Positions 1,413 through 56,867 are shown, counted from the stretch's first letter. The stretch is DNA of 57,624 bases from a virus (IMGVR_UViG_3300030397_000335:1-57624), one strand, 5' to 3'. The notes: a model not told the origin generated them from the letters alone. A program made the numbers and translations.

Positions 1413-1823
1413 ATGAAACAGCTTTTTACCATACCAAAAGACCTCTGGGGGCCTCGTCCCTGGCACGTAGCGCGAATGGAGCTTCAAGGCTTCGTCAAGC
1501 AGAACCGTGGTGCCCTAGATGAGCATGAGGTGGAGTTTGCGCGCTGGCTCTACGGACACTTCGAGATGGCGGAGCATCACACGCCGCCGTGGTCGGCTAA
1601 TAGTCCGGCCTACGTCGAATCAGTCTACAACTTCATCAACACTCAGATAACAGACATGGAAAAGCATGAGGCAGCTATAAGAAAGCTCTACAAGGAAGGC
1701 ACTACTGAACCTGAAGAGATAAAAGAATCACTTGTAGCTGATGGCCTGCGGAAGTTAACCGCTGCTTACATCCGGTCTGTAATTAGAATTATCAACAACG
1801 AGCAGCGCAAAGCTGCTGCATAA
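1413..1823 (+). CDS. Hypothetical protein
   Basis: 136 aa ORF in operon context; ends KAAA. Confidence 0.75.
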   Translation: MKQLFTIPKDLWGPRPWHVARMELQGFVKQNRGALDEHEVEFARWLYGHFEMAEHHTPPWSANSPAYVESVYNFINTQITDMEKHEAAIRKLYKEGTTEPEEIKESLVADGLRKLTAAYIRSVIRIINNEQRKAAA

Positions 1824-1841
1824 ACATACGAGGCTTTTATA

Positions 1842-2264
1842 ATGGCACGTGGAATAAACAAAGTAATCTTAGTAGGCAACCTGGGACAAGACCCTGAACT
1901 ACGCTACACAGGGAGCGGAACCGCCGTGTGCAACATGAGGCTTGCCACTAATGAATCCTACAAAGACGCTAGTGGCGAGATGGTGGACAAGACGGAGTGG
2001 CACAGCATCGTGGCCTGGAGCCGACTTGCAGAGATCTGCGGGGAGTACCTGAAGAAAGGCTCTCAAGTCTACTTCGAAGGATCATTGCAAACGCGGTCTT
2101 ATGACGACAAGGACGGAAATACCAAGTGGGTGACTGAGATCAAGGCGCGGGAGATGATGATGCTTTCAGGGCGTGAAGGAGGCGGGATGCATGCCACTAA
2201 GGAGCAACCAGCGAAGGCAGCACCATCGGGTAACTTTACTCCAGACGACGATCTCCCCTTCTAG
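1842..2264 (+). CDS. ssb: Single-stranded DNA-binding protein
   Basis: [29 protein letters not shown] motifs and acidic tip DDDLPF. Confidence 0.97.
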
Positions 2265-2266
2265 TC

Positions 2267-2617
2267 ATGAGCACAGCACGCAAACTAATACTAAACCCTG
2301 TAGGCTATCCTAAGCACTTCGCCATGACCGTTGACCGTACTTGGCGTGTCAGGCGAGGTGCTGCGCCTAAAGATGGCAAGAGGCTTCACAAGATCGAGAG
2401 GTGGAATAAAGATTCAGAGCGAGAATTGTGTGTTGTCTACAAGGGTAACTTCCTCGGCTTACTGGAGAAGCTAGAAGATCTGATGGGACAGAAAGTGAAC
2501 CTCTACAAAGAATACAATGGACACATGGTTCGCATCTGCGGGGAGTACAACATCCCCCCAGACGACACCCGCACCTACGACGAATACCTGAAAGATTTAA
2601 CCGGGAAAGCAGCATGA
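2267..2617 (+). CDS. Hypothetical protein
   Basis: 116 aa; ATGA overlap with the next gene. Confidence 0.75.
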   Translation: MSTARKLILNPVGYPKHFAMTVDRTWRVRRGAAPKDGKRLHKIERWNKDSERELCVVYKGNFLGLLEKLEDLMGQKVNLYKEYNGHMVRICGEYNIPPDDTRTYDEYLKDLTGKAA

Positions 2618-2958
2618 AAGATTTACTTGAACGATGGGCAGAGACTGAACCAAATCGGTGTGAAATACACACGGATGGCCTCTACTATTCGCTTAACACA
2701 TTCCCTAACGTGCTTGTGATAGAAACAAGGCGCTGGCACTTACCGATTATCCAAGGCGCTGTCCAGGAGGCAATCGAGGCGCGGGATGGACTCCGGTGGC
2801 ATATCGGATTAGGTGGTGAAACTATTAATTGGTGGTATGCGCAGATTGACAAAGATGGTAAGGTGATAGGGTCATGGGAAGCTGAAAGTAGCAACTCCCC
2901 AGCCGAGGCCCTGCTAACCGCATATCTAAGCGCACTAGAAGCACAGGTGCCAGCATGA
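2614..2958 (+). CDS. Hypothetical protein, phage ABA-sandwich-like (paralog 1 of 3)
   Basis: C-terminal SPAEALLTAYLSALE; similar to 5751 and 6158 proteins. Confidence 0.7.
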   Translation: MKDLLERWAETEPNRCEIHTDGLYYSLNTFPNVLVIETRRWHLPIIQGAVQEAIEARDGLRWHIGLGGETINWWYAQIDKDGKVIGSWEAESSNSPAEALLTAYLSALEAQVPA

Positions 2959-3119
2959 ACAAGCTAACCAAAACGCACTACCCGGAAAGCAGGGGCAAGC
3001 GCATCGGCATGTACTTGCTAATGCTGGCTGTCTTCGCCCTTACGGCGTTCATGTGCTACATCGGCTACAAGTACGCCATAGCGCTGAAATCTGAGTACGG
3101 GACGGAGGTAGCGAGATGA
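2955..3119 (+). CDS. Small membrane protein (54 aa, below ORF-track cutoff)
   Basis: MNKLTK...IGMYLLMLAVFALTAFMCYIGY...EVAR; ATGA overlaps on both sides. Confidence 0.7.
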   Translation: MNKLTKTHYPESRGKRIGMYLLMLAVFALTAFMCYIGYKYAIALKSEYGTEVAR

Positions 3120-3445
3120 CTGACGCAGACCGCACAGCGCTCCAGGCATTCGTAGCTGGCGAGCTAAAGCCGCACGATCTACCGCAGCACATGCAGGAGA
3201 CCTTAGCCAATCCGACCGAGTACAGGGCGAACCCTGCCCACTGCTTCAAGGGGTGCAGGCATGTTGACGGGACGTTCACTCCCTACCCCAGCATCGACGC
3301 TATGCAGGCGGACTACCAGTACAGCAAGAACATCACCGGGACGGTTGACCAGTTCCGCTTCTGGGTGTGGGTGCCCGTCACGCTGGCGATGCATGGGCTG
3401 TGGCCTGTTGCTAGTGGACAAATGGAATTGAGGTTGGCGGCATGA
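3116..3445 (+). CDS. Hypothetical protein
   Basis: 109 aa; SD GGAGG; ATGA overlaps. Confidence 0.75.
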   Translation: MTDADRTALQAFVAGELKPHDLPQHMQETLANPTEYRANPAHCFKGCRHVDGTFTPYPSIDAMQADYQYSKNITGTVDQFRFWVWVPVTLAMHGLWPVASGQMELRLAA

Positions 3446-3837
3446 GAGAAAAGCATGTAAAACTATTCCCTGTTCGTGGTCAATTTGATGGTTGGCACAA
3501 CTTCAGCGTTGGGCCGCGTCCCGTCAGAGCTAAATCTGCCCTACCTTTCTTTGCAACTCGCAGAATGAGCAGGTTTCATAGGGTCAGATCACTGACCACG
3601 TTTTACCACTGGGATAAATACGATTCATTCAAAAATCCCTATGTACACCATGTCTCTGTACATGCTTGGTGCGGTCAGGCTACAAGCTTAGATAAAGGGG
3701 CGATGCTCCGAGAAGAACCACTGGATTCGTGGCCTGTGTGTGCAATGTGCGAGGCTAAAGCTATGGGTGCTGGACAGGTAGACTCAAAGACACTCACAGG
3801 AAGAACTTTAATCTTCACACCACGGAAAGCAGCATGA
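3442..3837 (+). CDS. Hypothetical protein, possible Zn-binding
   Basis: H...WCG...CxxC pattern; ATGA overlaps. Confidence 0.7.
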   Translation: MREKHVKLFPVRGQFDGWHNFSVGPRPVRAKSALPFFATRRMSRFHRVRSLTTFYHWDKYDSFKNPYVHHVSVHAWCGQATSLDKGAMLREEPLDSWPVCAMCEAKAMGAGQVDSKTLTGRTLIFTPRKAA

Positions 3838-4034
3838 AATACAACGCTCACAAGCTGAAGGCAGACCTGGCAGAGCGCTGCCGCGTGGTCATGTACGCAG
3901 ACCATGTGCGGATGGCTGAACTGCACGCCTACTACCTGTCCCTGCTGCCTAAGCGCATGAAATCCACCGTGCTTGTGGAATCACGGATTAACAACGACCT
4001 GCGGAAAATTAGACCGATGAGGAATGCGGCATGA
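3834..4034 (+). CDS. Hypothetical protein
   Basis: 66 aa; ATGA overlaps. Confidence 0.7.
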   Translation: MKYNAHKLKADLAERCRVVMYADHVRMAELHAYYLSLLPKRMKSTVLVESRINNDLRKIRPMRNAA

Positions 4035-4414
4035 ACAACCCGAACGACGACTTTTTGAAATCACTGGACGACATTCCGCCACTTGCACCCCCAATCCAGA
4101 AAGGCCCTTGGCCTCCTTATAGTCCAAGCAATGGTAGTGAAGGATGCATTTTTGAGGCAAAGTTCTGTGATAGATGTGCGCATGAAGACATTGAGACCGA
4201 GCGCTGGTGCGACATTCATACGAATGCACTTTTCTACTACACCAACCAGGAAGGCTTTCCGGCTGAGTACTGGGTGTACTTCAACGGCGAACCAACATGC
4301 CTTGCATTCAAAGACAGGGACGATGGGCTAAATGGCCGTGCGCCTATCCCCTTCGATGACCCAGCACAACTCGATATGTTTTTGGAATTACCAGTTGTTG
4401 AGGTAGCGCAATGA
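4031..4414 (+). CDS. Cys-rich hypothetical protein with a clamp-binding-like motif
   Basis: PSNGSEG, CDRC, C..C pattern; QLDMF near the C-terminus. Confidence 0.75.
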   Translation: MNNPNDDFLKSLDDIPPLAPPIQKGPWPPYSPSNGSEGCIFEAKFCDRCAHEDIETERWCDIHTNALFYYTNQEGFPAEYWVYFNGEPTCLAFKDRDDGLNGRAPIPFDDPAQLDMFLELPVVEVAQ

Positions 4415-4773
4415 GCCAGTTAGAATTACTTCCAATCAAAAGCACCATGAAGCTCAGGACGGGCAAAAGCATAACTCTTGCCCGCGCCAAAGAAGAGTAC
4501 AGACAGCTAAACAGAAAGTGGGAGAAGCATAAGAAAGAAAAACCACTGTCATCGCTTGAGCCTAAAGATCAAGCAACAAGACTAATCCTTGATGGAGAAT
4601 TATCAAGAGGAGAAGCCATTGATTTTCTAGTAAAGCGAGGTTGGTCTGAAAATGATGCGCTTTCATGGGCCCTACAGACTTTCACAGGTACCTATTCCAA
4701 CGATTCATCAGCAACAATCATCAAAGCGCGCACCCTTCCTGTGGGGCGCTCAGCACGGAGGAAAGCAGCATGA
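4411..4773 (+). CDS. Hypothetical protein
   Basis: 120 aa; ATGA overlaps. Confidence 0.7.
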   Translation: MSQLELLPIKSTMKLRTGKSITLARAKEEYRQLNRKWEKHKKEKPLSSLEPKDQATRLILDGELSRGEAIDFLVKRGWSENDALSWALQTFTGTYSNDSSATIIKARTLPVGRSARRKAA

Positions 4774-4919
4774 AACTGAATTTTGGAGAAGCAATGACAT
4801 TGATGCTTGTTGGCCTCAATGTAACAGGACTGGCAGACGTGAACTGGTTTCTAGTCTTTCTGCCATATGCATCCTATATCGGACTTTTTGCAATTGGTGT
4901 CTTAGCAAAAGAATCATGA
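4770..4919 (+). CDS. Small membrane protein (49 aa)
   Basis: Start at ATG 4770 (ATGA overlap); hydrophobic, with NWFLVFLP motif. Confidence 0.65.
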   Translation: MKLNFGEAMTLMLVGLNVTGLADVNWFLVFLPYASYIGLFAIGVLAKES

Positions 4920-5173
4920 GAAGACTAACAACCAAACAAGAGCGGGTGCTTAACTACCTGCGGCGATACATAGCCGCCCACGGCAGCTTCCCAACATACA
5001 GGCAGGCAGCGGAAGACCTAACGCTTAAGTCTCCCAACACCTACACGCAATACCTCCAAGCACTAACCCAAAAGGGCTACGTGATGGGTAAAGGCAGAGA
5101 TAGGATATTGATCGCCGATAGGTGTTGCCCCCACTGCAATGCGCGCATGAGTGTGCAGAGGATGGCGGCATGA
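4916..5173 (+). CDS. LexA-type DNA-binding domain protein with C-terminal CPHC knuckle and no peptidase domain
   Basis: LTTKQERVLNYLRRYIAAHGSFPTYRQAA...KSPNT..YLQAL.QKGY matches the LexA N-terminal wHTH; real start ATG 4916. Confidence 0.8.
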   Translation: MRRLTTKQERVLNYLRRYIAAHGSFPTYRQAAEDLTLKSPNTYTQYLQALTQKGYVMGKGRDRILIADRCCPHCNARMSVQRMAA

Positions 5174-5754
5174 AGAAAACGTGGGATGATATCGTACTGG
5201 AACGTGGGGATGTGAGCTACACAGAACCGTCCAAATTGCGGAAAGTCGATTTTCCCGCAGGCGTACGATCTGACGCTGATAGGCCGAGGAATACGACACA
5301 GCACCTCTGCGTCGATTCTACCCCCCTTAGCGTGCGCCTGGTGGAAGATCTGGATACATCCGAACCCCAACCAAAGTCGCAACTTTTCAAAGTACCTGAT
5401 ATCGGCCCCAGCCTCAACGAGTACGACCGTGCCCACTACACCCGCAGAAAAGGGTGGGTTGATAGGTGGCACAGGCTGGTATCGGTAGAGGCAAAAAGGC
5501 AGGGCTTAACACCCGTTGTTCAGTACCCAGTACAGGTAGTTGTCGAGTGTTACTTTGGCGATGGTAGAAAGCGGTTTGACTGGGATAACCTATCCCCTAC
5601 TCCTAAGCTGATTCAGGACGGGCTAGTACATGCTGGCATTCTTGAGAATGACTCGGCAAAGTATGTGGAGAGTGGGACAATGAAAGCCCTGAAAACAAAG
5701 GGAGAATCTTACACACTTTTTATGATAATTGAACCAGTGAGGCAAGCGGCATGA
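5170..5754 (+). CDS. RusA-like Holliday junction resolvase
   Basis: PSLN, DWDN...K...DGL..AGILEND acidic catalytic pattern of the RusA family; start ATG 5170. Confidence 0.75.
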   Translation: MKKTWDDIVLERGDVSYTEPSKLRKVDFPAGVRSDADRPRNTTQHLCVDSTPLSVRLVEDLDTSEPQPKSQLFKVPDIGPSLNEYDRAHYTRRKGWVDRWHRLVSVEAKRQGLTPVVQYPVQVVVECYFGDGRKRFDWDNLSPTPKLIQDGLVHAGILENDSAKYVESGTMKALKTKGESYTLFMIIEPVRQAA

Positions 5755-6161
5755 AGGACTTTAAAACTCTAATCGAAAAATGGAGCGCAATAGAGCCACA
5801 GCGGTGTCGCTTCCTTGGCACGGTCGGCATGTGGGTTGGAGATATTAAGAAGGTGGAAGATGGGAATCACTCGCTCTTTGAGTTCATTAAGTTTGGAACG
5901 TTTGAGAATGGCTTTAATGAGTATAGTGTTCAAGGCATTTTACAGAAGGCTATCATAGCACACGGATGGTACTACAACCTAACCATTGCACGTGAAGCCA
6001 AAGACAAACCGCTCACTTATGTCTGCCAGGTCTACACATGTAGCTGGGACGGACTCCACAGTGGGCAAACAACCCAAGGCCCTGCCCATGCTATGATGGA
6101 GGCTTATGTGAAAGCGCTGGAGGCTGTTAAGAAGCTAGAAGCTGAGGAGGTGGTGGTATGA
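5751..6161 (+). CDS. Hypothetical protein, ABA-sandwich-like (paralog 2 of 3)
   Basis: EKWSAIEPQRC...QG.LQ.AI...GPAHAMMEAYVKALE. Confidence 0.7.
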   Translation: MKDFKTLIEKWSAIEPQRCRFLGTVGMWVGDIKKVEDGNHSLFEFIKFGTFENGFNEYSVQGILQKAIIAHGWYYNLTIAREAKDKPLTYVCQVYTCSWDGLHSGQTTQGPAHAMMEAYVKALEAVKKLEAEEVVV

Positions 6162-6523
6162 ACCTAACAGAAGCAATGGAGCGGATAGTGGCGGTTGACG
6201 GGGAGTGGATGAAGTATAATGAGGAAGACGACTTTTACTACGTGGCTACATACCCAATTAAATTTGGATCAGACTCCCCTATGTCTATGCATGTACTCTT
6301 CGGCGCACTCTGTGAGCGGATAGAGACCAAGAAAAACTGGACTTACAAGGGTGGGTCTCGAATAGGTAGAGATGGCTACTGGTTTCAAATATTCTCCTTT
6401 GGATTGGCAAAGCTTCCCGTTCAATGCACATCGGACGAATCCTTGTGTCACGCCGCCGCCCTAGCTTACCTGGAGGCTTTAGAATCTGTTGAAAAGACAG
6501 GGGCCAAGGAGGTGACAGCATGA
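6158..6523 (+). CDS. Hypothetical protein, ABA-sandwich-like (paralog 3 of 3)
   Basis: SLCHAAALAYLEALE; SD GAGGAGG. Confidence 0.7.
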   Translation: MNLTEAMERIVAVDGEWMKYNEEDDFYYVATYPIKFGSDSPMSMHVLFGALCERIETKKNWTYKGGSRIGRDGYWFQIFSFGLAKLPVQCTSDESLCHAAALAYLEALESVEKTGAKEVTA

Positions 6524-6654
6524 AACCCATCTGGCAAATCCTCAGCGCCCTAGTCATCACTGTGGTACTGTTATTGATCGGCGGTGCTATCGACAGCCAC
6601 TACCAGGCGGTGCAGCGGATCGCTGCTCAGTGTGAAACTACTCCCCTGCCCTAG
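6520..6654 (+). CDS. Small membrane protein (44 aa)
   Basis: MKPIWQILSALVITVVLLLIGG; SD GGAGG and ATGA overlap. Confidence 0.6.
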   Translation: MKPIWQILSALVITVVLLLIGGAIDSHYQAVQRIAAQCETTPLP

Positions 6655-6671
6655 CAAAACGAGAAAAGACA

Positions 6672-6959
6672 ATGGATAATAACTTCATATCATTTAATCC
6701 TAGAGGCTTCTTGGAAGCCATTGAGTCAACAGTAGCTAATACTTTTGATCGTAAGATTGCGGACGTTAAAGCGCTAAAGCAAAAGACGTATTCCGACAAG
6801 ACGTGGCTAACTGAAGAAGAGACGGCTGAGTACTTGGGGCTAAAAAAGGGAACCCTACAGGAAAAGCGCCGAGAAGGACTTATTGAGGCCAAAAAGAAAG
6901 AGAAAAATTACTACTACCACATCGACGCCATACACGCATACATAGAATCAGATGATTAA
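6672..6959 (+). CDS. Excisionase-like HTH_17 protein
   Basis: WLTEEETAEYLGLKKGTLQEKRREG; convergent with the integrase. Confidence 0.8.
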   Translation: MDNNFISFNPRGFLEAIESTVANTFDRKIADVKALKQKTYSDKTWLTEEETAEYLGLKKGTLQEKRREGLIEAKKKEKNYYYHIDAIHAYIESDD

Positions 6960-8173
6960 TCCCAGAGCTTTTTTACCTTGTCGTCCAAGTAGTCGGCAAA
7001 GTCAAAGCCTCTTAGGTATGTCTCAGTCTGCTTAATAGACGAATGACCAAGCGCCTTAGAAATATCATAGATCGTCCATCCCTCGGAAATCAGTTTTCCG
7101 GTGATACTGTGACGCGCTATATGTGTGCTAACATTCGTGGTTACATCTGCCAGTTCCATAACCTTTTTAAGTTGATCGTTGATAGCTGCGGTTCTGGACT
7201 CAATAGCACTTCTCTTAGACCATTCATTACTTATGTCATACCCCTCAAGTGCAGGGAATATGAAACGTCCTGTTTTATAAAGATCCATTATCTCACGGGC
7301 CGGGCGCATAATGAGAATGCCGTGGTTCTTTTCAGTCTTGTCCATCTCGAATTTGGCGCGTTCATCATCCCCGTCTTTAATGATGTTTTCTGGCTTAAGC
7401 TGCAACACATCAGATATGCGAATGCCAAACATGTAGTAGGCAAACATAAAGTAGTTTCTAGCATCCCAAATAGCCGAACCTTTAGTGAGATCAAGCGCAA
7501 TAATTCTGTCGATCTCCTCTTGCTTGAGATGCTCTTTGATTACATCTTTTGTCTTCAGCTTTACGTGGAAAAACGGGTTCTTGTCCTGCGAGAATTGCCC
7601 TTCTCGGATAGCAGCATAAAGAATGGTTCTGATCTTAGAGAGATTTTTGCTTCGCGTATTGAGATTATTGCCGTACTTCTCCCTAAGATGCACATCGAAT
7701 CGCCTGAGAAACTCGGGAGTGATATCATCGAAGGAAAGACCAGGCATAAACTTCTCAAGCTTGTTAAGAACAACCGTATTGCTCTTATATGTGCTAACCT
7801 GATTTCCTCGTTTGTAATCTTCTACAAACGACCTTGCATAAGTCATAAAGTCCCCGCCAGATCCCTGAGGCTTGATTCTTTCAACTACCCTGTTTCTGAT
7901 TCTGTCGCTAGTAATATCAAGGTTCTGCTTTGCAAGCTCAGTGAATACCTCATTGGCAACCTGAAGCACAGTTTGCAGATAGTCATTAAACGAACCCGAA
8001 CCTTTCATAGATTGGCGCACTGCCCTTTTCTTGTCGTTCCAGTGCCGAGGGGCTATCTTTTTGTCAAGGGGAACGTATCTACGCACGTTTTTGTGAGATA
8101 TCCTAAGCCTAAGTGGTGCCCTTCCCTCTTGGTCTTTTTGATCCTTTCTTATTTCAATTCTAAAGGTTGGCAT
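6956..8173 (-). CDS. int: Tyrosine integrase (arm-binding, SAM-like and catalytic domains)
   Basis: GIRISD (R), KT (K), HIARHS (HxxR), LGHSS, TETY; N-terminal P..LRI...W arm domain. Confidence 0.95.
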   Translation of the reverse strand: MPTFRIEIRKDQKDQEGRAPLRLRISHKNVRRYVPLDKKIAPRHWNDKKRAVRQSMKGSGSFNDYLQTVLQVANEVFTELAKQNLDITSDRIRNRVVERIKPQGSGGDFMTYARSFVEDYKRGNQVSTYKSNTVVLNKLEKFMPGLSFDDITPEFLRRFDVHLREKYGNNLNTRSKNLSKIRTILYAAIREGQFSQDKNPFFHVKLKTKDVIKEHLKQEEIDRIIALDLTKGSAIWDARNYFMFAYYMFGIRISDVLQLKPENIIKDGDDERAKFEMDKTEKNHGILIMRPAREIMDLYKTGRFIFPALEGYDISNEWSKRSAIESRTAAINDQLKKVMELADVTTNVSTHIARHSITGKLISEGWTIYDISKALGHSSIKQTETYLRGFDFADYLDDKVKKLWD

Positions 8174-8190
8174 ACCGAACGCTCAAATAT

Positions 8191-8410
8191 CGGTGCAGTT
8201 TTCGGTGCGTTACTTTCACGGTTCTTAATTGGTTTCGATTCGTTTCAATATAGCGTGGTAGATTTAGAACTGAAATACGCTGTAAACGTATATATTACAA
8301 GCACTTATTATTCCGCCCCTGACCACGACAGACTACCCGTAAGTGCTTATTTTGCTAGCATTTACGGGTTTTTTCATTTCTCCCCGGTGTGGTTTTCGGT
8401 GCGGTTTTTT
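8191..8410. other. attP region: core ATTCCGCCCCTGACCAC (8310-8326) with flanking arm-type repeats
   Basis: Core resembles the T-arm/acceptor 3' end of tRNA-Phe; CGGTG(C/T)(A/G)GTTTTCGGTGCG at 8191-8209 and 8385-8403; inverted repeat AAGCACTTA/TAAGTGCTT at 8299/8340. Confidence 0.75.
8336..8374 (+). terminator. Rho-independent terminator downstream of the att core
   Basis: ACCCGTAAGTGCT-loop-AGCATTTACGGGT followed by a T run; positioned to terminate the reconstituted tRNA. Confidence 0.75.
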
Positions 8411-8434
8411 ACTGCAACTCTACTAAAACGCACT

Positions 8435-8863
8435 ATGCCGATATATAAACCCTGTGAGGAATGTGGGACTATTTATCCTGCTCGCCCCTACCGCGTACGC
8501 CAAGGAAAAGCCCGATTTTGTAGCCGCGCCTGCCTTGCTAGGTGGATCGCCCGTGAAGTAACACCCAAAAGGGATCAGCGAGGAGATAAAAACCCAAACT
8601 GGAAAGGCGGAATATCCCAGAACCATTACCACTATAAGAAGCTTCAGAAGGAGCGCTACCCAGAGCGGGTAGAAGCAAGACGCAAGGTTCTGAGAGCTGT
8701 TCAGTCTGGCAGGTTAACACGTCTCCCCTGTCAAGATTGTGGGTCTACTGAAAATATCCAGGGGCACCACGAAGACTATTCAAAACCCCTCGAAGTTGTC
8801 TGGCTGTGCGCAAGCTGCCACCGCAGCAGACACGATGGGATGAAGTTCAACAAGGCAGCCTAA
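8435..8863 (+). CDS. Zn-finger/HNH-like endonuclease (142 aa)
   Basis: CEECG...FCSRAC, NPNWKGG, CQDCG...HHEDY.KPLEVVWLC.SCH; real start ATG 8435 inside the tracked 7043-8863 ORF. Confidence 0.85.
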   Translation: MPIYKPCEECGTIYPARPYRVRQGKARFCSRACLARWIAREVTPKRDQRGDKNPNWKGGISQNHYHYKKLQKERYPERVEARRKVLRAVQSGRLTRLPCQDCGSTENIQGHHEDYSKPLEVVWLCASCHRSRHDGMKFNKAA

Positions 8864-28950: not shown

Positions 28951-29054
28951 TAAAAAAACGGGGCACCTACCGTAAGCCGTAGCTTTGGCAAGTGCCCCGT
29001 TCGGGGTTTAGCCCCACTGGGATATAGCGCTTAATTACGCTGCGTCCCAGTGGG
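28951..29054 (-). promoter_or_regulatory. Two hairpins in the scaffold/capsid leader, one terminator-like
   Basis: CCCCACTGGGA/TCCCAGTGGGG and AACGGGGCAC/GTGCCCCGTT with a T run on the minus strand. Confidence 0.5.
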
Positions 29055-29111
29055 GAGGTATGTATAGGCATTGCTGCCTAGTTCATAATATACGGGTTAA
29101 GTCGTTTAGTT

Positions 29112-29378
29112 TCAATTGGATAGATACTCATTCATTTCAAGCTCAATAGCTTTAGCTCGACGTACAAGCGCCTGTATGATTTCAAAATCACTATTAACAC
29201 CACCAATGAATATCAAAGGTAAGTTCTTTAGGTCAATCTGCCAGTTTGCGATCTGAATCATACACTCCTCAAGCTGCTTCTCTAGTGCCGCCTCACGGCT
29301 TAGGGTATCGCGCGGAAAGTCTGTCATGCCAGGCTGTAGAATATTGCTGTAAGTGATCCGGTTAGGCCTGTCTTCCAC
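29112..29378 (-). CDS. Hypothetical protein
   Basis: Probable start at the internal ATG (MTDFP) overlapping the upstream stop. Confidence 0.55.
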   Translation of the reverse strand: MEDRPNRITYSNILQPGMTDFPRDTLSREAALEKQLEECMIQIANWQIDLKNLPLIFIGGVNSDFEIIQALVRRAKAIELEMNEYLSN

Positions 29379-39839: not shown

Positions 39840-40799
39840 CTATATCCGTATATAATCCACACCCGAATCAGCGAGCTTGTCCCGCTGGTGGCTGTAGACC
39901 GTTGTTGTTTGTAAGCTGCTATGACGCAGCACGGTCTTTACCTTGAGCACATCAGCGCCGCCATCGAGCATTAGCATGGCCGACGTGTGACGCAGCGTAT
40001 GTGCTCCAATTTCGCTTTGCAGCCCCGCCTTCATTACCAGGCGCTTGATAAGCCTGTAGACTGCATCGGGGCTAATCGGCTTATCCCTGTTGAAGTTCGA
40101 GAACGACAGAAACAGCGGCCCCGATGCTATCCCGTATTCCGCCTTGTGCTGCTCGATAGCCTGAATCAGATGCGCTGGCACCTTCACGCTCTGTCCCTCA
40201 CCGCCTTTCGTGTACGGCAGCATCAACACGTTATAAGCGCCCTGCATCGTGAAATGCTCACAGCACACAGCAGCAAGCTCGGATCGCCTAAGCCCCAAAT
40301 ATACCAGCATCTTCACAATCAGCTCGTCGCGGGTGTGCTCGCAGCAATCCAGCATCGCCCGCACCTGATCTTTCGACAGAAACACAACCGACGCCTCACC
40401 CTTATTCACCTTGATCTGCTGCACATCACCGTCGAAAGGGTTTTCATCGGCGCTGATTAGCTTTTTCTTTCTAAGCCAGGTGTAGAAGCCACGAATAGCG
40501 CTCATCTTCTGCGCTTTCGTGTTCTGGCTTGATGGCTCCCCCCTGTGGTTCGTTAGCTTGTTGAAATAGTCATTGACCATCTCATCAGACACGCCTATGG
40601 CCGCGCTTACATCAACCTTTTCAGTACCGAAGAAATGAACCAGCGCGTTGTAATAGGCAGAGTACGTGTTAGGCTTCTTTCTGTAGCGAACAAGGAACGC
40701 AGCAATCAAGTCACTCGACTGGTTCAGGTACTCCCGTTGTGACTGCTGTGCTGATGTTCGCCGCTGGATAGCTGTGTTATGCTGCTGGAGGTTGTTCAT
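39840..40799 (-). CDS. Second tyrosine recombinase (XerC/D-like, no arm domain)
   Basis: GLRRSE, TKGG, HTLRHT, LRHSS..TT..Y. Confidence 0.92.
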   Translation of the reverse strand: MNNLQQHNTAIQRRTSAQQSQREYLNQSSDLIAAFLVRYRKKPNTYSAYYNALVHFFGTEKVDVSAAIGVSDEMVNDYFNKLTNHRGEPSSQNTKAQKMSAIRGFYTWLRKKKLISADENPFDGDVQQIKVNKGEASVVFLSKDQVRAMLDCCEHTRDELIVKMLVYLGLRRSELAAVCCEHFTMQGAYNVLMLPYTKGGEGQSVKVPAHLIQAIEQHKAEYGIASGPLFLSFSNFNRDKPISPDAVYRLIKRLVMKAGLQSEIGAHTLRHTSAMLMLDGGADVLKVKTVLRHSSLQTTTVYSHQRDKLADSGVDYIRI

Positions 40800-41484: not shown

Positions 41485-42708
41485 AACTTTTAGCCTCCCG
41501 TTACATACAATGAACATATGGTCGTGGCTGGCTACAAATACCGATTTTACCCTTCTCCGAGTCAGGAAAAGTCCCTTCTCCAAACATTTGGATGTGTCCG
41601 ATTTGTATACAACAAAGCTCTTGAGACGAGAAAAAGGCATTTCGAAGAAACGGGAGAAGGAATCTCTTACAATCAAAGCTCTGCGCTTCTGACGGGCTGG
41701 AAAAAAGAAGAACCATACAAGTGGCTTAATGAGGTGTCTTGTATCCCACTTCAACAATGCCTTCGCCACCTGCAAACAGCTTATCGAAACTTCTTTGAGA
41801 AGCGTAGTGGCTACCCCAATTTTAAAAACCGACGCTATAAGCAAAGCGCTGAGTTCACTAAATCGGGGTTTCGTCTTAAAGGAGATATGAGCCAGCCACT
41901 CGTGTATCTCTCTAAACAGGCGAGGCCCCTCAAAATCCGCTGGAGCCGCCCTCTTCCAGGCGAAGTATCTAGTATCACAATTACAAAAGACTCTGCCAAT
42001 AGATACTTCGTCGTCTTTAAAGTTAAGTTTATTCCCCAATCCTATAAGCCGAGAACCAAAGCTGTAGGATTGGATTTGGGACTTGCTCATGCCGTCATAA
42101 CATCTGACGGTGTTAAATACGACAATCCCAAATGCTTCAAAAAAGAGTTGAGTAGACTGAAAAAGGAACAAAAAAAGCTTTCTCGCAAGACAATTGGTTC
42201 TCAGAACCAAAAAAAACAGCGCGTCAAAGTTGCACGCATTCACGCGAAAATAAAAGATCAGCGACAAGATTGGATACATAAAGTCACGACACAACTTGTT
42301 CAAGAGTATGGTACCATTTGTATAGAGACGCTTAAGGTTTCTAACATGATGAAAAACCGTAGGCTTTCCCGTGCTATCGCCGACGTGTCGTGGTATGAGA
42401 TTCGCCGACAACTGGAGTACAAAACAAAATGGTACAATGGAAAAGTTGTTGCTATAGATCAGTGGACCCCAACAAGTAAAACTTGTAGTGAATGCGGGAC
42501 GATTAGGGGCGATATTCCACTTCAGGTTCGGGGATGGGCTTGTGAATGCGGTGCTGTACATGATCGTGATATTAATGCTGCTCGTAATGTTTTAAGGGTA
42601 GGAACTACCCAGCTAGCCTCTGGAGAGACTATAATTCCTGATCAGTTAGCTGCTTAGGTTCGTCTCTGTGAATGAGGAATCACTGCTATTTTCAGCAGAG
42701 AAGTTCAA
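41485..42708 (+). mobile_element. IS200/IS605-family TnpB-only element (IS1341-like)
   Basis: Right end has hairpin CTGCT/AGCAG then TTCAA (42704-42708); left junction follows TTAT/TTAG; removing the element restores an ORF. Confidence 0.8.
41518..42657 (+). CDS. tnpB: RNA-guided endonuclease TnpB
   Basis: YKYRFYP, FGCVRFVYN, GLDLG (D), IETL (E), Zn ribbon CSECG/CECG, HDRDINAARN (D). Confidence 0.96.
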   Translation: MVVAGYKYRFYPSPSQEKSLLQTFGCVRFVYNKALETRKRHFEETGEGISYNQSSALLTGWKKEEPYKWLNEVSCIPLQQCLRHLQTAYRNFFEKRSGYPNFKNRRYKQSAEFTKSGFRLKGDMSQPLVYLSKQARPLKIRWSRPLPGEVSSITITKDSANRYFVVFKVKFIPQSYKPRTKAVGLDLGLAHAVITSDGVKYDNPKCFKKELSRLKKEQKKLSRKTIGSQNQKKQRVKVARIHAKIKDQRQDWIHKVTTQLVQEYGTICIETLKVSNMMKNRRLSRAIADVSWYEIRRQLEYKTKWYNGKVVAIDQWTPTSKTCSECGTIRGDIPLQVRGWACECGAVHDRDINAARNVLRVGTTQLASGETIIPDQLAA

Positions 42709-51689: not shown

Positions 51690-52670
51690 TTAGGCTCTCG
51701 GTTTAGGCTGAGAGCCTTTCTCGTTAGAGGGACCTTCCAAAGGCTTGGCATTAACCCTCAGACTGATTTGGTAGGGTCTGTCCCCCACTTTCTTCACTAC
51801 GTCTATCCTGACAGCTTCTACCGTGTCGTATCCCTCACTTGTTGCATTAAACACCATGTCTAATACCTCAAAGTCAATGAGTGATACAATAGCATCGACT
51901 AGATGCTTTGGGAGCACCCTGCCCCCACTACTATCTACGTAATTTCTTATTAAACCTTCATCGTCATTTTGGACGCTCTCTATGTGGGTAGTTTCACCTA
52001 CATCGGGTGAGACATTGTATAAAAAGGCTGGTTTAGTGTCATCCTGGTAAGCGACATTAGCAACAGCTTCAACCTGATCCCTACTTGTACCAGTACTAAC
52101 AATCGCCAGCCACCCCCCTAGCTCCTTAGACTGTACATAGTACCACGGTTTCGAACGCCACGCCAACCACATGGGAATACCGTTCGGCTCGTAGTACCTG
52201 GCTTCCAGCCTCGTTGATGGGTTACCAGAAAGCAGTGAACGCTCGTACTCTAAAGAATCCTCATTGGTGAAGACCTCACTGATCTTCTTGCCTATCAGTG
52301 GCACATGCTCTTCAATCTCGAACGTCTTTATATAGGCATCGGTAGCCAGGATAAAGCGCGCCTCCTTATCAAACATCGCAACGCTGTAAGGATTCTCAGC
52401 CAAGAAGGCTTCGTAGTACGGTAACGATTCGCCGTTCTCTAGTGGATATACCTCGCTCTCGTTCTGGATGTGTCCGAGCTGCTGCTTTGCCCTGTACTTG
52501 CCGTAACTAGCTTTTTCTATTAAACCTTCATGCATCATCCTCACCACTAGCTGTCTTACCTGATTCCCACCTATCCCCGTCGCCGCTGAAATCTGCTTAG
52601 GCGACATAGCACCTCCCCTATCAGCTAGTAGCTCTAATATAGCATCTTTGTGTGTTTTGTCTTCCTGCAT
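51690..52670 (-). CDS. Winged-helix + PAS domain regulator in the repressor position
   Basis: N-terminal wHTH (SPKQISAATGI...G.Y); PAS F...P.SVAMFD...IG....EVF...W..W...PW...GG; divergent from the early operon. Confidence 0.85.
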   Translation of the reverse strand: MQEDKTHKDAILELLADRGGAMSPKQISAATGIGGNQVRQLVVRMMHEGLIEKASYGKYRAKQQLGHIQNESEVYPLENGESLPYYEAFLAENPYSVAMFDKEARFILATDAYIKTFEIEEHVPLIGKKISEVFTNEDSLEYERSLLSGNPSTRLEARYYEPNGIPMWLAWRSKPWYYVQSKELGGWLAIVSTGTSRDQVEAVANVAYQDDTKPAFLYNVSPDVGETTHIESVQNDDEGLIRNYVDSSGGRVLPKHLVDAIVSLIDFEVLDMVFNATSEGYDTVEAVRIDVVKKVGDRPYQISLRVNAKPLEGPSNEKGSQPKPRA

Positions 52671-52697
52671 GTAACTGTTACACCATCGTTACAAGAA

Positions 52698-52741
52698 TGC
52701 TACTTGCAACTATTGACAAGTGCTACTAGCATTCGTATTAT
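52698..52741 (+). promoter_or_regulatory. Early promoter with two operator-like palindromes
   Basis: TTGACA (52713)-17-TATTAT (52736); TGCTACTTGCA (52698) and TGCTACTAGCA (52721). Confidence 0.8.
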
Positions 52742-52773
52742 GTGTCCGACACTATCAGTGACAATATAAAGCA

Positions 52774-52956
52774 ATGACACTCAAGGACAAACTAACGGAA
52801 AAGAAAACGGAGAGATTAGATGTTCGTGTCCCTGTCCACTTGATGGATAGAGTTAGGGCAATTGTAAATGCATCAGATGCTAACAAATCCGATGTTGCTC
52901 GAACAGCGCTTGAGTTGTGCCTCCCTAAGATAGAAAAGGAGTTCAACCTCGCATAA
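52774..52956 (+). CDS. Ribbon-helix-helix regulator (Cro-position)
   Basis: RLDVRVP..L..RV......NKSDVARTAL. Confidence 0.8.
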   Translation: MTLKDKLTEKKTERLDVRVPVHLMDRVRAIVNASDANKSDVARTALELCLPKIEKEFNLA

Positions 52957-53031
52957 CCTCTCCTAAATAAATGAAGCTCCAGGGCCGTCGTCGAAAACTT
53001 CCCCAGAGCTTCTGAAAACTTACATTTTCAG

Positions 53032-53394
53032 ATGAAAACTAAGCATTTATCTACGATAGACGCAACTCCCCCGGCTACAAAAAGACAGAGCGTTCTGCTC
53101 GTCTTCAAGAACACAAGATTGCCGCAGTACCCAGCATTCATGCTCCTGCGGTTCGTTCACGCCACATTCCCTAATGATAAGGCTGTCAACTACGTCGAAA
53201 TGGTTCGCACCGGACTGCGAATGCCTAAAGACCGATTCGATTTGTACGTAGCAGACGGTACGTTCGTACCTGCACCTACTACCGCCGTTCTTCTGGGAAG
53301 GGTTAAGCCCTCAACCAAATTTGAGATCATGCATAGCGAGACCTACGAGTCTCCGCGCATGGTAGACATGCACCGCTACCTCGAAGCGGCATAA
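53032..53394 (+). CDS. Hypothetical protein
   Basis: 120 aa; ends LEAA. Confidence 0.65.
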   Translation: MKTKHLSTIDATPPATKRQSVLLVFKNTRLPQYPAFMLLRFVHATFPNDKAVNYVEMVRTGLRMPKDRFDLYVADGTFVPAPTTAVLLGRVKPSTKFEIMHSETYESPRMVDMHRYLEAA

Positions 53395-53553
53395 ACACCT
53401 CTTGAAATCATGGAAGCATTACCAATGGCTACTGTCATCAGTAGCACGGTTGCCGCTGGCACTTCGCTAGTCACGCTTGGAGCAACCGCAGTCTATTTCT
53501 CGCAGCGCATTTGGCGCACGTTCACCCAGTTTGAAGGATTCAGGAGGTAGGTT

Positions 53554-53880
53554 ATGCGAATACCTAAACCATCAGAGCTTACAGGCAACCTGTTTGGCTC
53601 TCCGTTTGGCAAAAGAGAAAATGAGCAGGTAGCAAAGAACCTGCGAATCGTGGCAAAACTACGGGGTGATAATTGGCTCCCTTTCACATGGATTGACTAC
53701 ACAGAGCACTGCACACACACCGTAACAGAAAGCGAGCATAGCGTCATAAATAGGTTTGTAGATGATGATTTGCTGATAGAGCAAGAAGGAAAATACTACT
53801 TCACCAGCAAGATGATTGGATTCTATATGTACTGTGGAGAAGGAACTGTGATTGACCCTGAAAAACCAGTGATGAGGTAG
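53554..53880 (+). CDS. Hypothetical protein
   Basis: 108 aa; SD AGGAGG. Confidence 0.75.
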   Translation: MRIPKPSELTGNLFGSPFGKRENEQVAKNLRIVAKLRGDNWLPFTWIDYTEHCTHTVTESEHSVINRFVDDDLLIEQEGKYYFTSKMIGFYMYCGEGTVIDPEKPVMR

Positions 53881-53884
53881 CGCA

Positions 53885-54124
53885 ATGCACGGACAGGACG
53901 GACAATACGAACCCCCTGAGTATCCAGATGACCGCGATGAAGCGGATCGGTGGGAGTGGCTCACGACGCACAACTGCCCGATGGACGAACTGGCTTACGA
54001 TTACAGTCGCACAGTCTACGAGGATGTGCAAGAGATCAAGGTATGTCCCGCGTGCTGGGAGAAGGTTTGGAAACACGCTGGAGGCATCATGCGCCTACAC
54101 CAGCACAGCAAGATAGCAGCATGA
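53885..54124 (+). CDS. Hypothetical protein, possible Zn-binding
   Basis: CP...CPAC; SD GAGG. Confidence 0.65.
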   Translation: MHGQDGQYEPPEYPDDRDEADRWEWLTTHNCPMDELAYDYSRTVYEDVQEIKVCPACWEKVWKHAGGIMRLHQHSKIAA

Positions 54125-54321
54125 CCGAAGACGGACTCATACTAACCCTCAGCAAGAACCACGACGGTGACTGGGTTCTCAGTCTGGACGACGAGATCTG
54201 GGAGTGCGCCATAACAATCGAAGGGGTCATTGAGAAGTGGAATAAGGCGAAATCAGCCGAATATGGCACTGCTAAAGCCCCTGAAAGCATCACATTGATA
54301 CTGCCCTTTGACAATGAATAG
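54121..54321 (+). CDS. Hypothetical protein
   Basis: Start MTEDG at the ATGA overlap. Confidence 0.65.
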   Translation: MTEDGLILTLSKNHDGDWVLSLDDEIWECAITIEGVIEKWNKAKSAEYGTAKAPESITLILPFDNE

Positions 54322-54424
54322 CGACGAACAGCACGGATGCCGTGTGCTCATAGCGGTCTTTATATGGCTCTTTTGCATACTGCTCTTCATAGGCGTTGTC
54401 GTGACAGGGCTTAGTTCTTTATAA
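54314..54424 (+). CDS. Small membrane peptide (36 aa)
   Basis: MNSDEQHGCRVLIAVFIWLFCILLFIGVVVTGLSSL. Confidence 0.55.
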   Translation: MNSDEQHGCRVLIAVFIWLFCILLFIGVVVTGLSSL

Positions 54425-54432
54425 GATTGACT

Positions 54433-54779
54433 TTGGGTTGTGGATGGATCGTAGCCAGTCCAAACGCCTATCCCCGCTGGTACCGAGCGGCACAGGTGCA
54501 GAGGATGCACAACCCAATCCCATTGGAGCACCGGATACAACGAGCATCGCCCATCAGGGCCGTGCGAGTCGTAGTTCGAAGGATGGTGAATGGCAAATTG
54601 CCAACAAGTCGCAGCGAAATGCTGTGCCCGGTGCTCCAACTCTTTGTCCGGTGAATCGTCCTCGTGCGAATCTTAGAGAAGACCGGACAACACAGAAAGC
54701 GGTGGGTGATTGAGCATCACCTAAGAGCACCGCTTTGCTGATCCATAGGGGCGGGGCTTAAACGCCATGCCTCCGCCCC
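54433..54779 (+). ncRNA. Putative array of structured non-coding RNA elements
   Basis: Five consecutive closed stems of 9-12 bp, three with clear inner hairpins; no convincing ORF. Confidence 0.55.
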
Positions 54780-54798
54780 GCCCTCCTAACTGGCAGTA

Positions 54799-55059
54799 AT
54801 GCCACAAGCTAGTACAGACATGTTAACAAAGATATTCCAACACCCTGAAGCAACAGCGCTCGAAATGCAGCGGCTCCGCCGTGATAATGCGCGCTTACAG
54901 GAAGAAAACGACCGCCTATTTCAAGAAGTCCAGGCGAACCGCAGGCTTGCCCAGCTTGGCAACCAGATGGCAAACGAGCGGGATGCAGTGATTAAAGGCG
55001 TAATCGGTGATCTTAATATCGTCACCACATATGAGCTTGATAATGGAAGTGCAGCTTAG
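54799..55059 (+). CDS. Coiled-coil hypothetical protein
   Basis: 86 aa; ends GSAA. Confidence 0.65.
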   Translation: MPQASTDMLTKIFQHPEATALEMQRLRRDNARLQEENDRLFQEVQANRRLAQLGNQMANERDAVIKGVIGDLNIVTTYELDNGSAA

Positions 55060-55243
55060 CGGACTCGCCCATTTTAGCCTGCTGGTGATCGTGTTCATTG
55101 CTGGCTACCTGTTCTGCCTATTCTCGCAAGGGCCTAACGACCCGCCAGAAAACGGTGATTACCTGATGACTACCAAGGAGCAGCTTAACCAGTTTTTGCA
55201 GCGTGCGCAGGGGATGGTGACTAACAATTTAACTACAGCTTAG
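55043..55243 (+). CDS. Small membrane protein
   Basis: Start MEVQL; one TM helix. Confidence 0.55.
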   Translation: MEVQLSGLAHFSLLVIVFIAGYLFCLFSQGPNDPPENGDYLMTTKEQLNQFLQRAQGMVTNNLTTA

Positions 55244-55245
55244 AT

Positions 55246-56262
55246 ATGCAGAATTTATTTCAGAAAGCAACAAAAGAAGCCGCCAAGCTACGCATGGCAA
55301 TCAGCGGCCCCAGTGGTTCAGGTAAGACTTTTACTTCACTTGTCCTTGCCAGGGAACTTGGTGGCAAGACAGCCTACATTGACACGGAACACGGCAGCGC
55401 TTCTAAGTATGCAGACCTTTTTGACTTTGACGTTATCAACATGGATGCGCCCTACAGCCCCACGCGCTTTGTCGAGTTTATGAAGATGGCTGAAGACGCT
55501 GGATACGACGTGCTAATCATTGATAGTCTTTCGCACGCGTGGAACGGCAAGGGTGGTCTTCTTGAGATCGTGGATGAGGAGATGGCGCGAAAGAAAACCA
55601 ACAACTCTTTTGTTGGGTGGAAGAAAGCAACACCGATGCATAATGATATGATCGAAGCTATCATATCTAGCAAGATCCACATTATTGCTACCATGCGCAG
55701 TAAGCAAGAATATGTGATCGAGAAGGACAGCAAAGGGAAGACGCAGATCAACAAGGTGGGCATGGCTCCTATTCAGCGTGACGGGATGGAGTACGAGTTT
55801 GATGTGTGGGGAGAGATGGATGTTGAGAATCGAATGCTGATAAGCAAAACAAGGTGTCCACAGCTGGCGGGTAAGGTATTGCCGAAGCCAGGCAAGAACC
55901 TTTCAGCACCACTGATAGAATGGCTTAAAGGCGTTGAGCCCAAGCAGAAAAGAGAACTACCACAGCAAACCGAGTCAGCACCTACAGCTCCCGAACCAGC
56001 GGTGTCAACACCACCTTACTCAGATCAGGAGCGCACCCAGTTTCATGCTATCGGTGGCGAACTCTATGGTAGTCAGTGGGATGAGAAGCGCCGCAATCTT
56101 GTGAAGCATGCAAGCAATGAAAGAACCGACTCCATGAAGGAACTGACTGCCGAGGAGTTTCAGCGCATATTTGCGGGATTGAAAAAGAGACAGCAGGAAG
56201 CTAAGAAGCCGCAAACCAAAGGCGAGGTGAGTGAAGCGCTATACAGCAGGCAAGCGGCATGA
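55246..56262 (+). CDS. AAA_24 ATPase (Sak4-like recombinase family)
   Basis: GPSGSGKT, IDTE, IIDSLSHAW, EYEFD, KTR. Confidence 0.85.
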   Translation: MQNLFQKATKEAAKLRMAISGPSGSGKTFTSLVLARELGGKTAYIDTEHGSASKYADLFDFDVINMDAPYSPTRFVEFMKMAEDAGYDVLIIDSLSHAWNGKGGLLEIVDEEMARKKTNNSFVGWKKATPMHNDMIEAIISSKIHIIATMRSKQEYVIEKDSKGKTQINKVGMAPIQRDGMEYEFDVWGEMDVENRMLISKTRCPQLAGKVLPKPGKNLSAPLIEWLKGVEPKQKRELPQQTESAPTAPEPAVSTPPYSDQERTQFHAIGGELYGSQWDEKRRNLVKHASNERTDSMKELTAEEFQRIFAGLKKRQQEAKKPQTKGEVSEALYSRQAA

Positions 56263-56867
56263 CAAAAAAAGAGGAGATTGATAAGGCCAAAGAATCAGAT
56301 AGACATCTCTTATCCGCAAGGGTATCCCATCTCTACGGGGTGCCAGAAAGTGAAATACAAAAGATGGTTTCAGACACTCTTTCTAAATATTTCCATGTCA
56401 GACGTGAAGTACTGAGTGAAGATGGATCAAGCCGGATTGATGTGATTGCAGTACATAAATCGGACAATAATGGCAATTTTCCTATAGGGATTGAGATTAA
56501 AGCGGTTGGTAAAAAGCGTGGTGTTGAAATAGGCGATTGGATAAACCAAGCATATAAGTATAGTCAACTTCCTTTCAGAGGCTTTGGTAAAGTTGCAGTC
56601 TTTCTCTTTCCACAAATAAGCGGTCTTTATTTAGAAGAAGGATCTGAAGTGTCTAGACACAACTTGACTGGACGCCAAATATGGGAAGGCGGGCATCACA
56701 ATGTAGCTACTATGCTTAGTAGCTTTGACCTTGGTGAATTGCAATTCTACAAGACATGGAAGGGAAAGTGGAGATTGAGGCTGGTTTATGCCGCAAAAAG
56801 AATATGGGAACAGCACAATGACATCTTTCAGCCTAACAATCTTACTAACCTTAAGAAGGCAGCATGA
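56259..56867 (+). CDS. Putative PD-(D/E)XK nuclease
   Basis: REV...RID...GIEIK...QA..Y. Confidence 0.65.
   Translation: MTKKEEIDKAKESDRHLLSARVSHLYGVPESEIQKMVSDTLSKYFHVRREVLSEDGSSRIDVIAVHKSDNNGNFPIGIEIKAVGKKRGVEIGDWINQAYKYSQLPFRGFGKVAVFLFPQISGLYLEEGSEVSRHNLTGRQIWEGGHHNVATMLSSFDLGELQFYKTWKGKWRLRLVYAAKRIWEQHNDIFQPNNLTNLKKAA

Follow-up and report, generated by a model that had tools for sequence, protein, structure and literature searches.

A tandem array of five units, each closed by its own inverted repeat, tiles a 374-nt gap (54425-54798) in the early operon of an uncultivated, temperate tailed phage. Positions refer to the window, the whole 57,624-base stretch of DNA that was analysed. The array is a structured intercistronic element of this operon. 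Its structure is real and lies far beyond chance, it is non-coding, and it is modular. It is also an orphan, and the interiors of its units are not convincingly folded.

The IMG/VR record is a complete virus entry, linear, with an estimated completeness of 69%. Its large terminase shares ~43% identity with its counterparts in BPP-1-like podophages of Proteobacteria. A DUF3223 protein and the tyrosine integrase are encoded near a TnpB gene. The earlier note had placed the array inside an early operon, and the gene layout agrees. All genes from 52774 onward, including both flanks of the array, are on the + strand, behind a promoter-like site that is likely the early rightward promoter. This + strand run holds several small orphan ORFs, an AAA_24/Sak4-like ATPase gene, a 202-aa ORF and a primase-polymerase-like ORF. 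The last of these lies 2 kb downstream of the array, and we read it as a primase-polymerase. Many gene junctions of the early operon are formed by ATGA overlaps.

The gap separates an ORF ending at 54424 from an ORF starting at 54799. The last gene before it, a small hydrophobic ORF, has a start that overlaps the end of a 66-aa ORF. The first gene after it, which encodes an 86-aa coiled-coil-like protein, is conserved in the relative from run X4 described below, and an ENA protein (P0004, encoded on a 1496-nt ENA contig) is 78% identical to its product. G+C content is 54-57% in the array region versus ~48-51% in the flanks. No promoter or terminator was called within 54425-54798, where both strands were scanned for terminators. 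A 10-codon reading frame that begins in the loop of unit 5, MPPPRPPNWQ, may be a proline-rich coupling uORF, or it may be chance, because a C-rich stem arm reads as prolines. Coordinates are collected in Table 1.

Table 1. Array units, their closing stems, and other features of the window.
Feature	Position	Strand	Closing stem	Remarks
Tyrosine integrase	39840-40799
TnpB/IS605 OrfB gene	41518-42657	+		HTH_OrfB_IS605, OrfB_IS605 and Cas12f1-like TNB domains
Repressor-like HTH gene	51690-52670	-		Faces the promoter-like site
Promoter-like site	52713-52741	+		TTGACA-17-TATTAT; consensus match 11/12; ~1.7 kb upstream of array
60-aa ORF	52774-52956	+		PHROG matches to transcriptional repressors, weak only
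Small hydrophobic ORF	54314-54424	+		36 aa from ATG at 54314 (38 aa from TTG); codon score -0.04
Unit 1	54433-54517	+	54433-54442 / 54508-54517, 10 bp	85 nt; whole-unit z -2.49
91-aa ORF (ORF91)	54438-54713	+		Crosses units 1-4
Unit 2	54523-54639	+	54523-54534 / 54628-54639, 12 bp	117 nt; whole-unit z -5.24, 0/200 shuffles as good; predicted inner hairpins at 54536-54573, about 54591-54603, and 54610-54626
28-aa Cys-rich ORF	54590-54676	+		Within units 2-3; Shine-Dalgarno-like AAGGA 6 nt before ATG
Unit 3	54644-54690	+	54644-54652 / 54682-54690, 9 bp	47 nt, 29-nt interior; whole-unit z -2.39
Unit 4	54696-54736	+	54696-54704 / 54728-54736, 9 bp	41 nt; whole-unit z -4.48, 0/200 shuffles as good; stem stacked on 6-bp inner hairpin (GGTGAT/ATCACC)
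Unit 5	54748-54784	+	54748-54757 / 54775-54784, 10 bp	G+C stem, last pair G-U; 17-nt loop, no U-tract behind; z -2.77 (+), -3.38 (-)
10-codon uORF candidate	54767-54799	+		MPPPRPPNWQ; AUG in unit 5 loop; TAA overlaps next ATG (TAATG)
86-aa coiled-coil-like ORF	54799-55059	+		First gene after array; 0.31 bits/codon
AAA_24/Sak4-like ATPase	55246-56262	+		Start 450 nt downstream of array

The five closing inverted repeats listed in the earlier note are all present at the positions given there, and all are perfect. The coordinates held for units 1-4; the end of unit 5 did not, since this unit runs to about 54784 and not to 54779. The spacers between units measured 5, 4, 5 and 11 nt, inside the 4-11 nt that had been reported. 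The closing stems of units 1-4 consist of Watson-Crick pairs only. Over the whole window, perfect helices that reach 9 bp or more and span no more than 130 nt were then counted, which gave 48 versus 18.4 +/- 4.3 in dinucleotide shuffles. At the array five such stems stand side by side within 351 nt. This cluster is unique in the window. Three stems, the next best count, occur both in the iteron region (1216-1378) and among the hairpins of 28957-29264. Among 100 dinucleotide-preserving shuffles of the whole window, the maximum number of side-by-side stems in 350 nt was one in 35, two in 63 and three in 2, and four or more stems were found in 0/100 shuffled genomes.

The units are not sequence repeats of one another (pairwise z -1.3 to +2.1), as the earlier note had said. 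A common processing signal had been suggested there for units 1-3, all of which open with TTG and close with CAA; this suggestion found no support. In a palindromic stem, TTG at one end necessarily yields CAA at the other. What remains is that three units share their first letters, and the unit boundaries that display them were chosen after the fact.

Folding energies were compared with those of shuffled sequences, a check that the earlier note had proposed. The 374-nt gap folds as + strand RNA with -152.7 kcal/mol and a z-score of -4.26, and 0/100 shuffles were as good. The - strand gave z -4.31, and the strands were not distinguished by folding energy for either the gap or the single units. 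With DNA parameters the signal was stronger than with RNA parameters (z -5.48 versus -4.26). Among GC-corrected windows of 374 nt the gap ranked 2/458 on the + strand and 7/458 on the - strand. On an unphased 200-nt grid it ranked only 27-33/1149, so the signal depends on seeing whole units.

Inner stems and hairpins had also been listed for the units, and these fared poorly. When interiors were folded without their closing arms, most were no better than shuffles. The interior z-scores were -0.28 for unit 1 (72/200 shuffles as good), -1.81 for unit 2 (11/200, marginal) and +0.08 for unit 3. Unit 4 reached -2.82, and its inner hairpin alone stands out. The robust feature is five different perfect closing stems placed around fillers, not five richly folded RNAs. 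Stems made of Watson-Crick pairs only, shuffle-like interiors and the stronger z-score with DNA parameters fit a DNA-level or mutational origin as well as they fit RNA.

The top outlier of the 200-nt + strand folding scan lies elsewhere in the window (z -4.5). It comprises two adjacent strong hairpins with 15- and 18-nt arms at 28957-29055, between - strand ORFs in what we take as the structural region. A role in termination or stabilisation behind a highly expressed gene is probable.

The array was examined for membership of known RNA and element classes. A tRNA or tmRNA was expected to show a cloverleaf with a 7-bp acceptor and D, anticodon and T arms, or a tmRNA tRNA-like domain plus tag. 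ARAGORN identified 0 genes in the whole window, which does not favour the acceptor-like end described for unit 2 in the earlier note. The statement there that the units are not canonical tRNAs stood, with 0 calls in 54300-54900 whether the threshold was the default, 95% or 85%. Lowering it to 75% and permitting introns gave only two implausible calls, with 'introns' of 43 and 182 nt. Rfam 15, which had been suggested as a further check and which covers riboswitches, ribozymes, group I/II introns, Y RNA, 6S and phage motifs, gave 0 matches in the whole window at the gathering score. At E<=10 the segment 54200-55000 had one chance-level match to a Giardia snoRNA (15.4 bits versus 84 required, E=3).

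Nor does the array resemble a cluster of intrinsic terminators. The closing stems enclose loops of 17-93 nt (23-93 nt in units 1-4), and a short UUU follows the stem of unit 4 only. The A-tract and U-tract flanks of unit 4 give it a weak terminator-like look, and the terminator scan made no call there. The perfect stems of 9-12 bp are shorter than the classical RNase III substrate of ~20 bp. REP/BIME or MITE elements would be expected in several copies, and none was found elsewhere in the window by blastn or with a covariance model of unit 2 (R1). Unit 2 is not flanked by a target-site duplication. The units are not direct repeats of the kind found in the ToxI-like RNA of Type III toxin-antitoxin systems, where one unit of ~36 nt recurs in tandem ahead of a toxin gene. 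No reverse transcriptase, as in a retron or DRT, was found by Pfam and PHROGs among the flanking ORFs (51690-56867); the rest of the window was scanned in part. An attP site was rejected because the integrase gene is 14 kb away. A TnpB guide RNA or IS605 end was rejected because tnpB lies at 41518-42657 and shares no sequence with the array.

Relatives were sought in several collections. Blastn in distant mode with 54300-54900 gave no match in the phage reference collection, and nothing similar was found in the species-genome collection. IMG/VR viral contigs, searched through neighbouring or overlapping ORFs and exact motifs, yielded no relative. A gapped pattern of the unit 2 stem retrieved three unrelated high-GC contigs from IMG/VR (L004-L006) as chance matches, one of them inside an apparent transposase reading frame by our reading. 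R1 recovered only unit 2 itself when run on the window and on contigs L002-L006 (L002 in part). One of the chance-match contigs, L005, carries an element of its own at 3600-3810. Two tandem units of ~100 nt with the common blocks GGGGTAGTGAACCGGG ... CCCGGGAGGTACGA ... ATCCCGGTG lie there in apparently non-coding sequence, and the tandem unit may be a structured RNA repeat.

Among metagenome contigs only L002 and L003 were found, which differ at 1/1311 aligned positions. Their AAA_24 protein is 64% identical to that of the window, and they carry the same replication genes. Both lack the array: a Cys-rich and a coiled-coil ORF flank the corresponding slot, which is only 96 nt long and holds one hairpin with a 12-bp stem that is not significant (z -1.69). 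Since L002 and L003 do without the array, it is not a fixed feature of the phage group.

A closer relative came from a sequencing run of a different study, X4. It is a 1101-nt contig of depth 4, seen as a difference list against 53500-55600 of the window, and it aligns in three pieces. The pieces differ from the window by 27/193 positions (14%) at 54116-54308, by 10 substitutions and 7 inserted bases in unit 2 (54523-54638), and by 19/252 positions (7.5%) at 54803-55054. Exactly 54433-54522 is absent, that is, unit 1 plus its 5-nt linker (90 nt), and the joint from 54432 to 54523 has a 4-nt microhomology, TTGG. By our arithmetic 124 nt lie between the first two aligned pieces versus 214 nt in the window. 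Of this stretch 54412-54432 is kept, and 54309-54411 is replaced by an unalignable sequence of equal length (103 nt). Beyond unit 2, 250 unlike bases replace the 164 nt that hold units 3-5 in the window.

Unit 2 is thus the only unit kept in the X4 relative. No change falls in its closing stem. Within unit 2, 6/7 listed substitutions and all 6 insertions lie at 54548-54567, where the first inner hairpin has its tip. Outside this tip, 1 listed and at most 3 unlisted substitutions fall in 96 nt, equivalent to 1-4% by our arithmetic. Judged by hand, the listed changes could allow hairpin 54536-54573 to form with another tip, on an alignment that is ambiguous here, with 6 insertions in 20 nt and 3 changes unlisted, and this is given no weight as evidence. 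Retention of unit 2, loss of unit 1 and other sequence in the place of units 3-5 point to a modular array with unit 2 as its core. On this one low-depth contig, the units appear to behave as modules, with unit 2 the conserved one.

Variants were also seen in runs X1-X3. X1 and X2 may be where the window came from, and X3 belongs to the same study; all have only identical sequence and branch points and are hence not independent support. Their low-depth variants are common over 54414-54442 and then divergent, and one X3 variant joins 54442 to 54646. Unitigs of these runs break at ~53980, 54062-54091, 54310-54339, 54646-54675 and 54912-54941, with low-depth alternative neighbours. Across the locus, X4 included, the alternative joins found were 54149/54414, 54442/54646, 54432/54523 and 54638/54803. 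Early-operon region 53979-54941 is a hot spot of mosaicism in the co-occurring phages of the source samples. The earlier note had described discrete stem-closed units, and their edges coincide with break points between related genomes.

A conserved protein in the stretch had been named in the earlier note as the finding that would speak against structured RNAs. None was found, and the gap was non-coding by every test run. ORF91 was compared with 5.8 billion proteins, where it matches only its own contig's record, and it belongs to no Pfam family. It scores 0.07 bits/codon, well under its neighbouring genes (0.14-0.36 for seven ORFs of 60-120 aa), and other frames across the gap have negative codon scores. 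The net +7 nt of unit 2 in the X4 relative falls inside ORF91 and would break any frame. On these grounds the gap is taken as non-coding. That it encodes a small protein after all, either ORF91 or the 28-aa Cys-rich ORF, with the stems incidental, we regard as very improbable. Both ORFs exist, the codon score of ORF91 is weakly positive, and a Shine-Dalgarno-like sequence precedes the ATG at 54590. Against a small protein stand the isolation, poor score and broken frame of ORF91, and, for the 28-aa ORF, an X4 relative that diverges fully after 54638, mid-way through the frame, and whose one listed change before that point (54605 C>A) is non-synonymous. An alternative genetic code was rejected. 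Read-through of TGA extends ORF91 only to a TAA at 54759-54761, in a frame that differs by eye from that of the next gene, and TGA is the stop throughout the ATGA gene junctions.

The explanation that we tentatively prefer, and would rate somewhat short of probable, is that the stem-closed units are RNA modules transcribed together, which serve in processing or stability and are possibly released as small RNAs. The active form would be the + strand RNA. The gap would be transcribed as part of the rightward early operon, and in the resulting polycistronic RNA the closing stems would give every unit the shape of a compact domain. The conserved functional core would be unit 2, while units 1 and 3-5 would be stem-loop modules open to exchange. 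An untranslated stretch of 374 nt in a coupled operon must avoid Rho and nucleases, and stem-closed domains would serve this end by shielding it from Rho or endonucleases. The stems may also block 3'-to-5' exonucleases, offer double-stranded sites for RNase III-type processing, or both. The transcript would then fall into two parts that differ in stability, the upstream one with the small regulators and the downstream one with the genes for recombination and replication. Conservation in unit 2 extends to the unpaired linkers, which suggests a sequence-specific role, and the unit could be released as a small stable RNA. Against RNA modules weigh the Watson-Crick-only stems with their mostly shuffle-like interiors, the stronger z-score with DNA parameters, strands that folding energy does not tell apart, and the low rank on the 200-nt grid. 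Classical RNase III sites and hairpins that block exonucleases also look different from stems of 9-12 bp around 23-93 nt, and L002 and L003 do without the array.

The inverted repeats could instead be a functionless by-product of evolution at a hypervariable junction, produced for example by template-switch 'palindrome perfecting' or left as scars of illegitimate recombination and cassette exchange, with the apparent conservation of unit 2 due to recent exchange. A by-product would account for a signal confined to perfect Watson-Crick arms around random-like interiors, for the unitig breaks and alternative joins of a mosaic hot spot, and for the absence of the array in L002 and L003; the conservation of unit 2 comes from one contig of depth 4. 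We nevertheless consider it unlikely. Five different perfect stems side by side occurred in 0/100 shuffles, and mutation leaves their strict non-overlap and the tiling of the whole gap with 4-11-nt spacers unexplained. In addition, unit 2 diverges less than both flanking genes, and G+C content is raised across the whole gap. The stems could instead act as single-stranded DNA, in lagging-strand priming, in single-strand initiation, or as a hairpin site for the recombination and replication proteins encoded nearby. The Watson-Crick-only stems, the stronger DNA z-score, the equal folding of both strands, and the nearby AAA_24 gene (450 nt) and primase-polymerase-like ORF (2 kb downstream) speak for such a role. 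It is judged quite improbable in view of the region's high G+C content without an AT-rich stretch or iterons, and of the turnover of units and absence of the array in phages with the same replication genes, which are unexpected for an essential replication site. Moreover, a classical iteron cluster at 1126-1406, at the end of a replication gene, is a better origin candidate, so a replication role for the array is less needed.

A further alternative makes unit 2, and perhaps other units, a trans-acting counter-defence RNA. It could work as a sponge, or imitate a host RNA or a CRISPR repeat as decoy or mimic. An early operon with small orphan genes, a hypervariable slot with cassette-like turnover of units, and conservation of the unit 2 interior including unpaired linkers are all in keeping with this. 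Phage RNAs that subvert CRISPR are documented as well, in a preprint on vsgRNAs. The units show no likeness to tRNA, tmRNA or any Rfam family, and their architecture is unlike a single-guide RNA or a solitary CRISPR repeat. We hold a counter-defence RNA to be quite unlikely. A wider version, in which the whole array is a cassette array of small phage RNAs, packaged by their stems and swapped whole, with unit 2 as founder of a trans-acting class of ~117 nt, seems unlikely too. Unit 2 might then counter a host defence or an RNA-binding protein, for instance by serving as decoy or sponge, and whole units would be exchanged between phages much as tRNA genes are.

What is at stake differs between these explanations. 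Host-takeover and counter-defence functions cluster in phage early operons, and RNA-based ones are only starting to emerge. If stem-closed modules are indeed gained, lost and swapped, this would be a new way of organising early-operon RNAs, with unit 2 as a candidate for a new RNA family. Should the stems only serve mRNA processing or stability, or have arisen as recombination by-products, nothing unusual for a junction in a mosaic phage would be left.

Several known systems share features with the array. At junctions of T7 early genes, the RNase III hairpins R0.3-R1.3 serve to cut and stabilise mRNA segments. Like the array, they are several intercistronic stem-loops in one early polycistronic RNA on the strand of the genes. 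Each junction in T7 has a single hairpin, about two helical turns long and with an internal loop, whereas the array has five units in one gap. REP/BIME elements, MITEs and the Rhodobacter puf hairpin clusters are intercistronic palindromic units that stabilise upstream mRNA. REP/BIME and MITE palindromes also form intercistronic clusters in which whole units are present or absent between strains. REP and MITE elements, however, are multi-copy sequence families, while the units of the array are mutually unrelated and have no other copy in the window. By function the array may be closest to the T7 hairpins and to stabilisers of the REP/puf type.

The T4 'species 1 and 2' RNAs (rnaC, rnaD) are small stable RNAs encoded beside a tRNA cluster. 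They too are phage-encoded non-tRNA units whose 5' and 3' ends pair and which are gained and lost, as tRNA genes are. The T4 RNAs form part of an array of processed units in a genuine tRNA cluster, and tRNA-processing enzymes mature them, while the window has no tRNA and the array no tRNA-like fold. By organisation the array appears closest to these stem-closed stable RNAs. HK022 put and the lambdoid nut sites are cis-acting structured RNAs of the early operon that act on the transcribing polymerase, and the array would likewise be a structured RNA in a phage early operon. The put element comprises two adjacent hairpins of ~70 nt in a promoter-proximal position, whereas the array spans 350 nt and lies 1.7 kb from the promoter-like site. 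No sequence resemblance between the two was apparent, and no terminators were detected for the array to override. Filamentous phages have an intergenic region with five hairpins, and plasmids carry ssi and sso signals. The filamentous phage region, like the array, consists of side-by-side hairpins of different sequence that are non-coding and dominated by Watson-Crick pairs, and in appearance the array would be closest to it. These systems belong to single-stranded genomes or transfer intermediates; the array belongs to a tailed phage with a dsDNA genome, whose candidate origin, of the iteron type, lies at another site. The array has the testable defining features of none of the systems compared.

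The iteron cluster (1126-1406), found where a 456-aa ORF (2-1372) ends, consists of dense short repeats with a GTGACAG/CTGTCAC core. At least 12 copies are present in both orientations, three of them head-to-tail (CTGTCACTTC), and on the - strand no other part of the window has so strong a local folding signal. This cluster is likely an iteron-type replication origin.

C-terminal Ala-Ala residues were observed in 15/93 ORFs of a crude ORF call. 14 of these ORFs are on the + strand and 13 lie in the early and replication blocks (53032-56867 and 1413-8863). The ends read GC(A/G)GCATGA, so that stop codon and following ATG overlap, as seen in the ORFs that end at 2617, 3445, 3837, 4034, 5173, 5754, 54124, 56262 and 56867. 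In L002 the same C-termini are found at 1918-5570, as LAA, KAA, PAA, QAA, KAA and KAA. A motif for coupling or re-initiation is one possible role of these ends; another is to tag early proteins for degradation through the C-terminal Ala-Ala.
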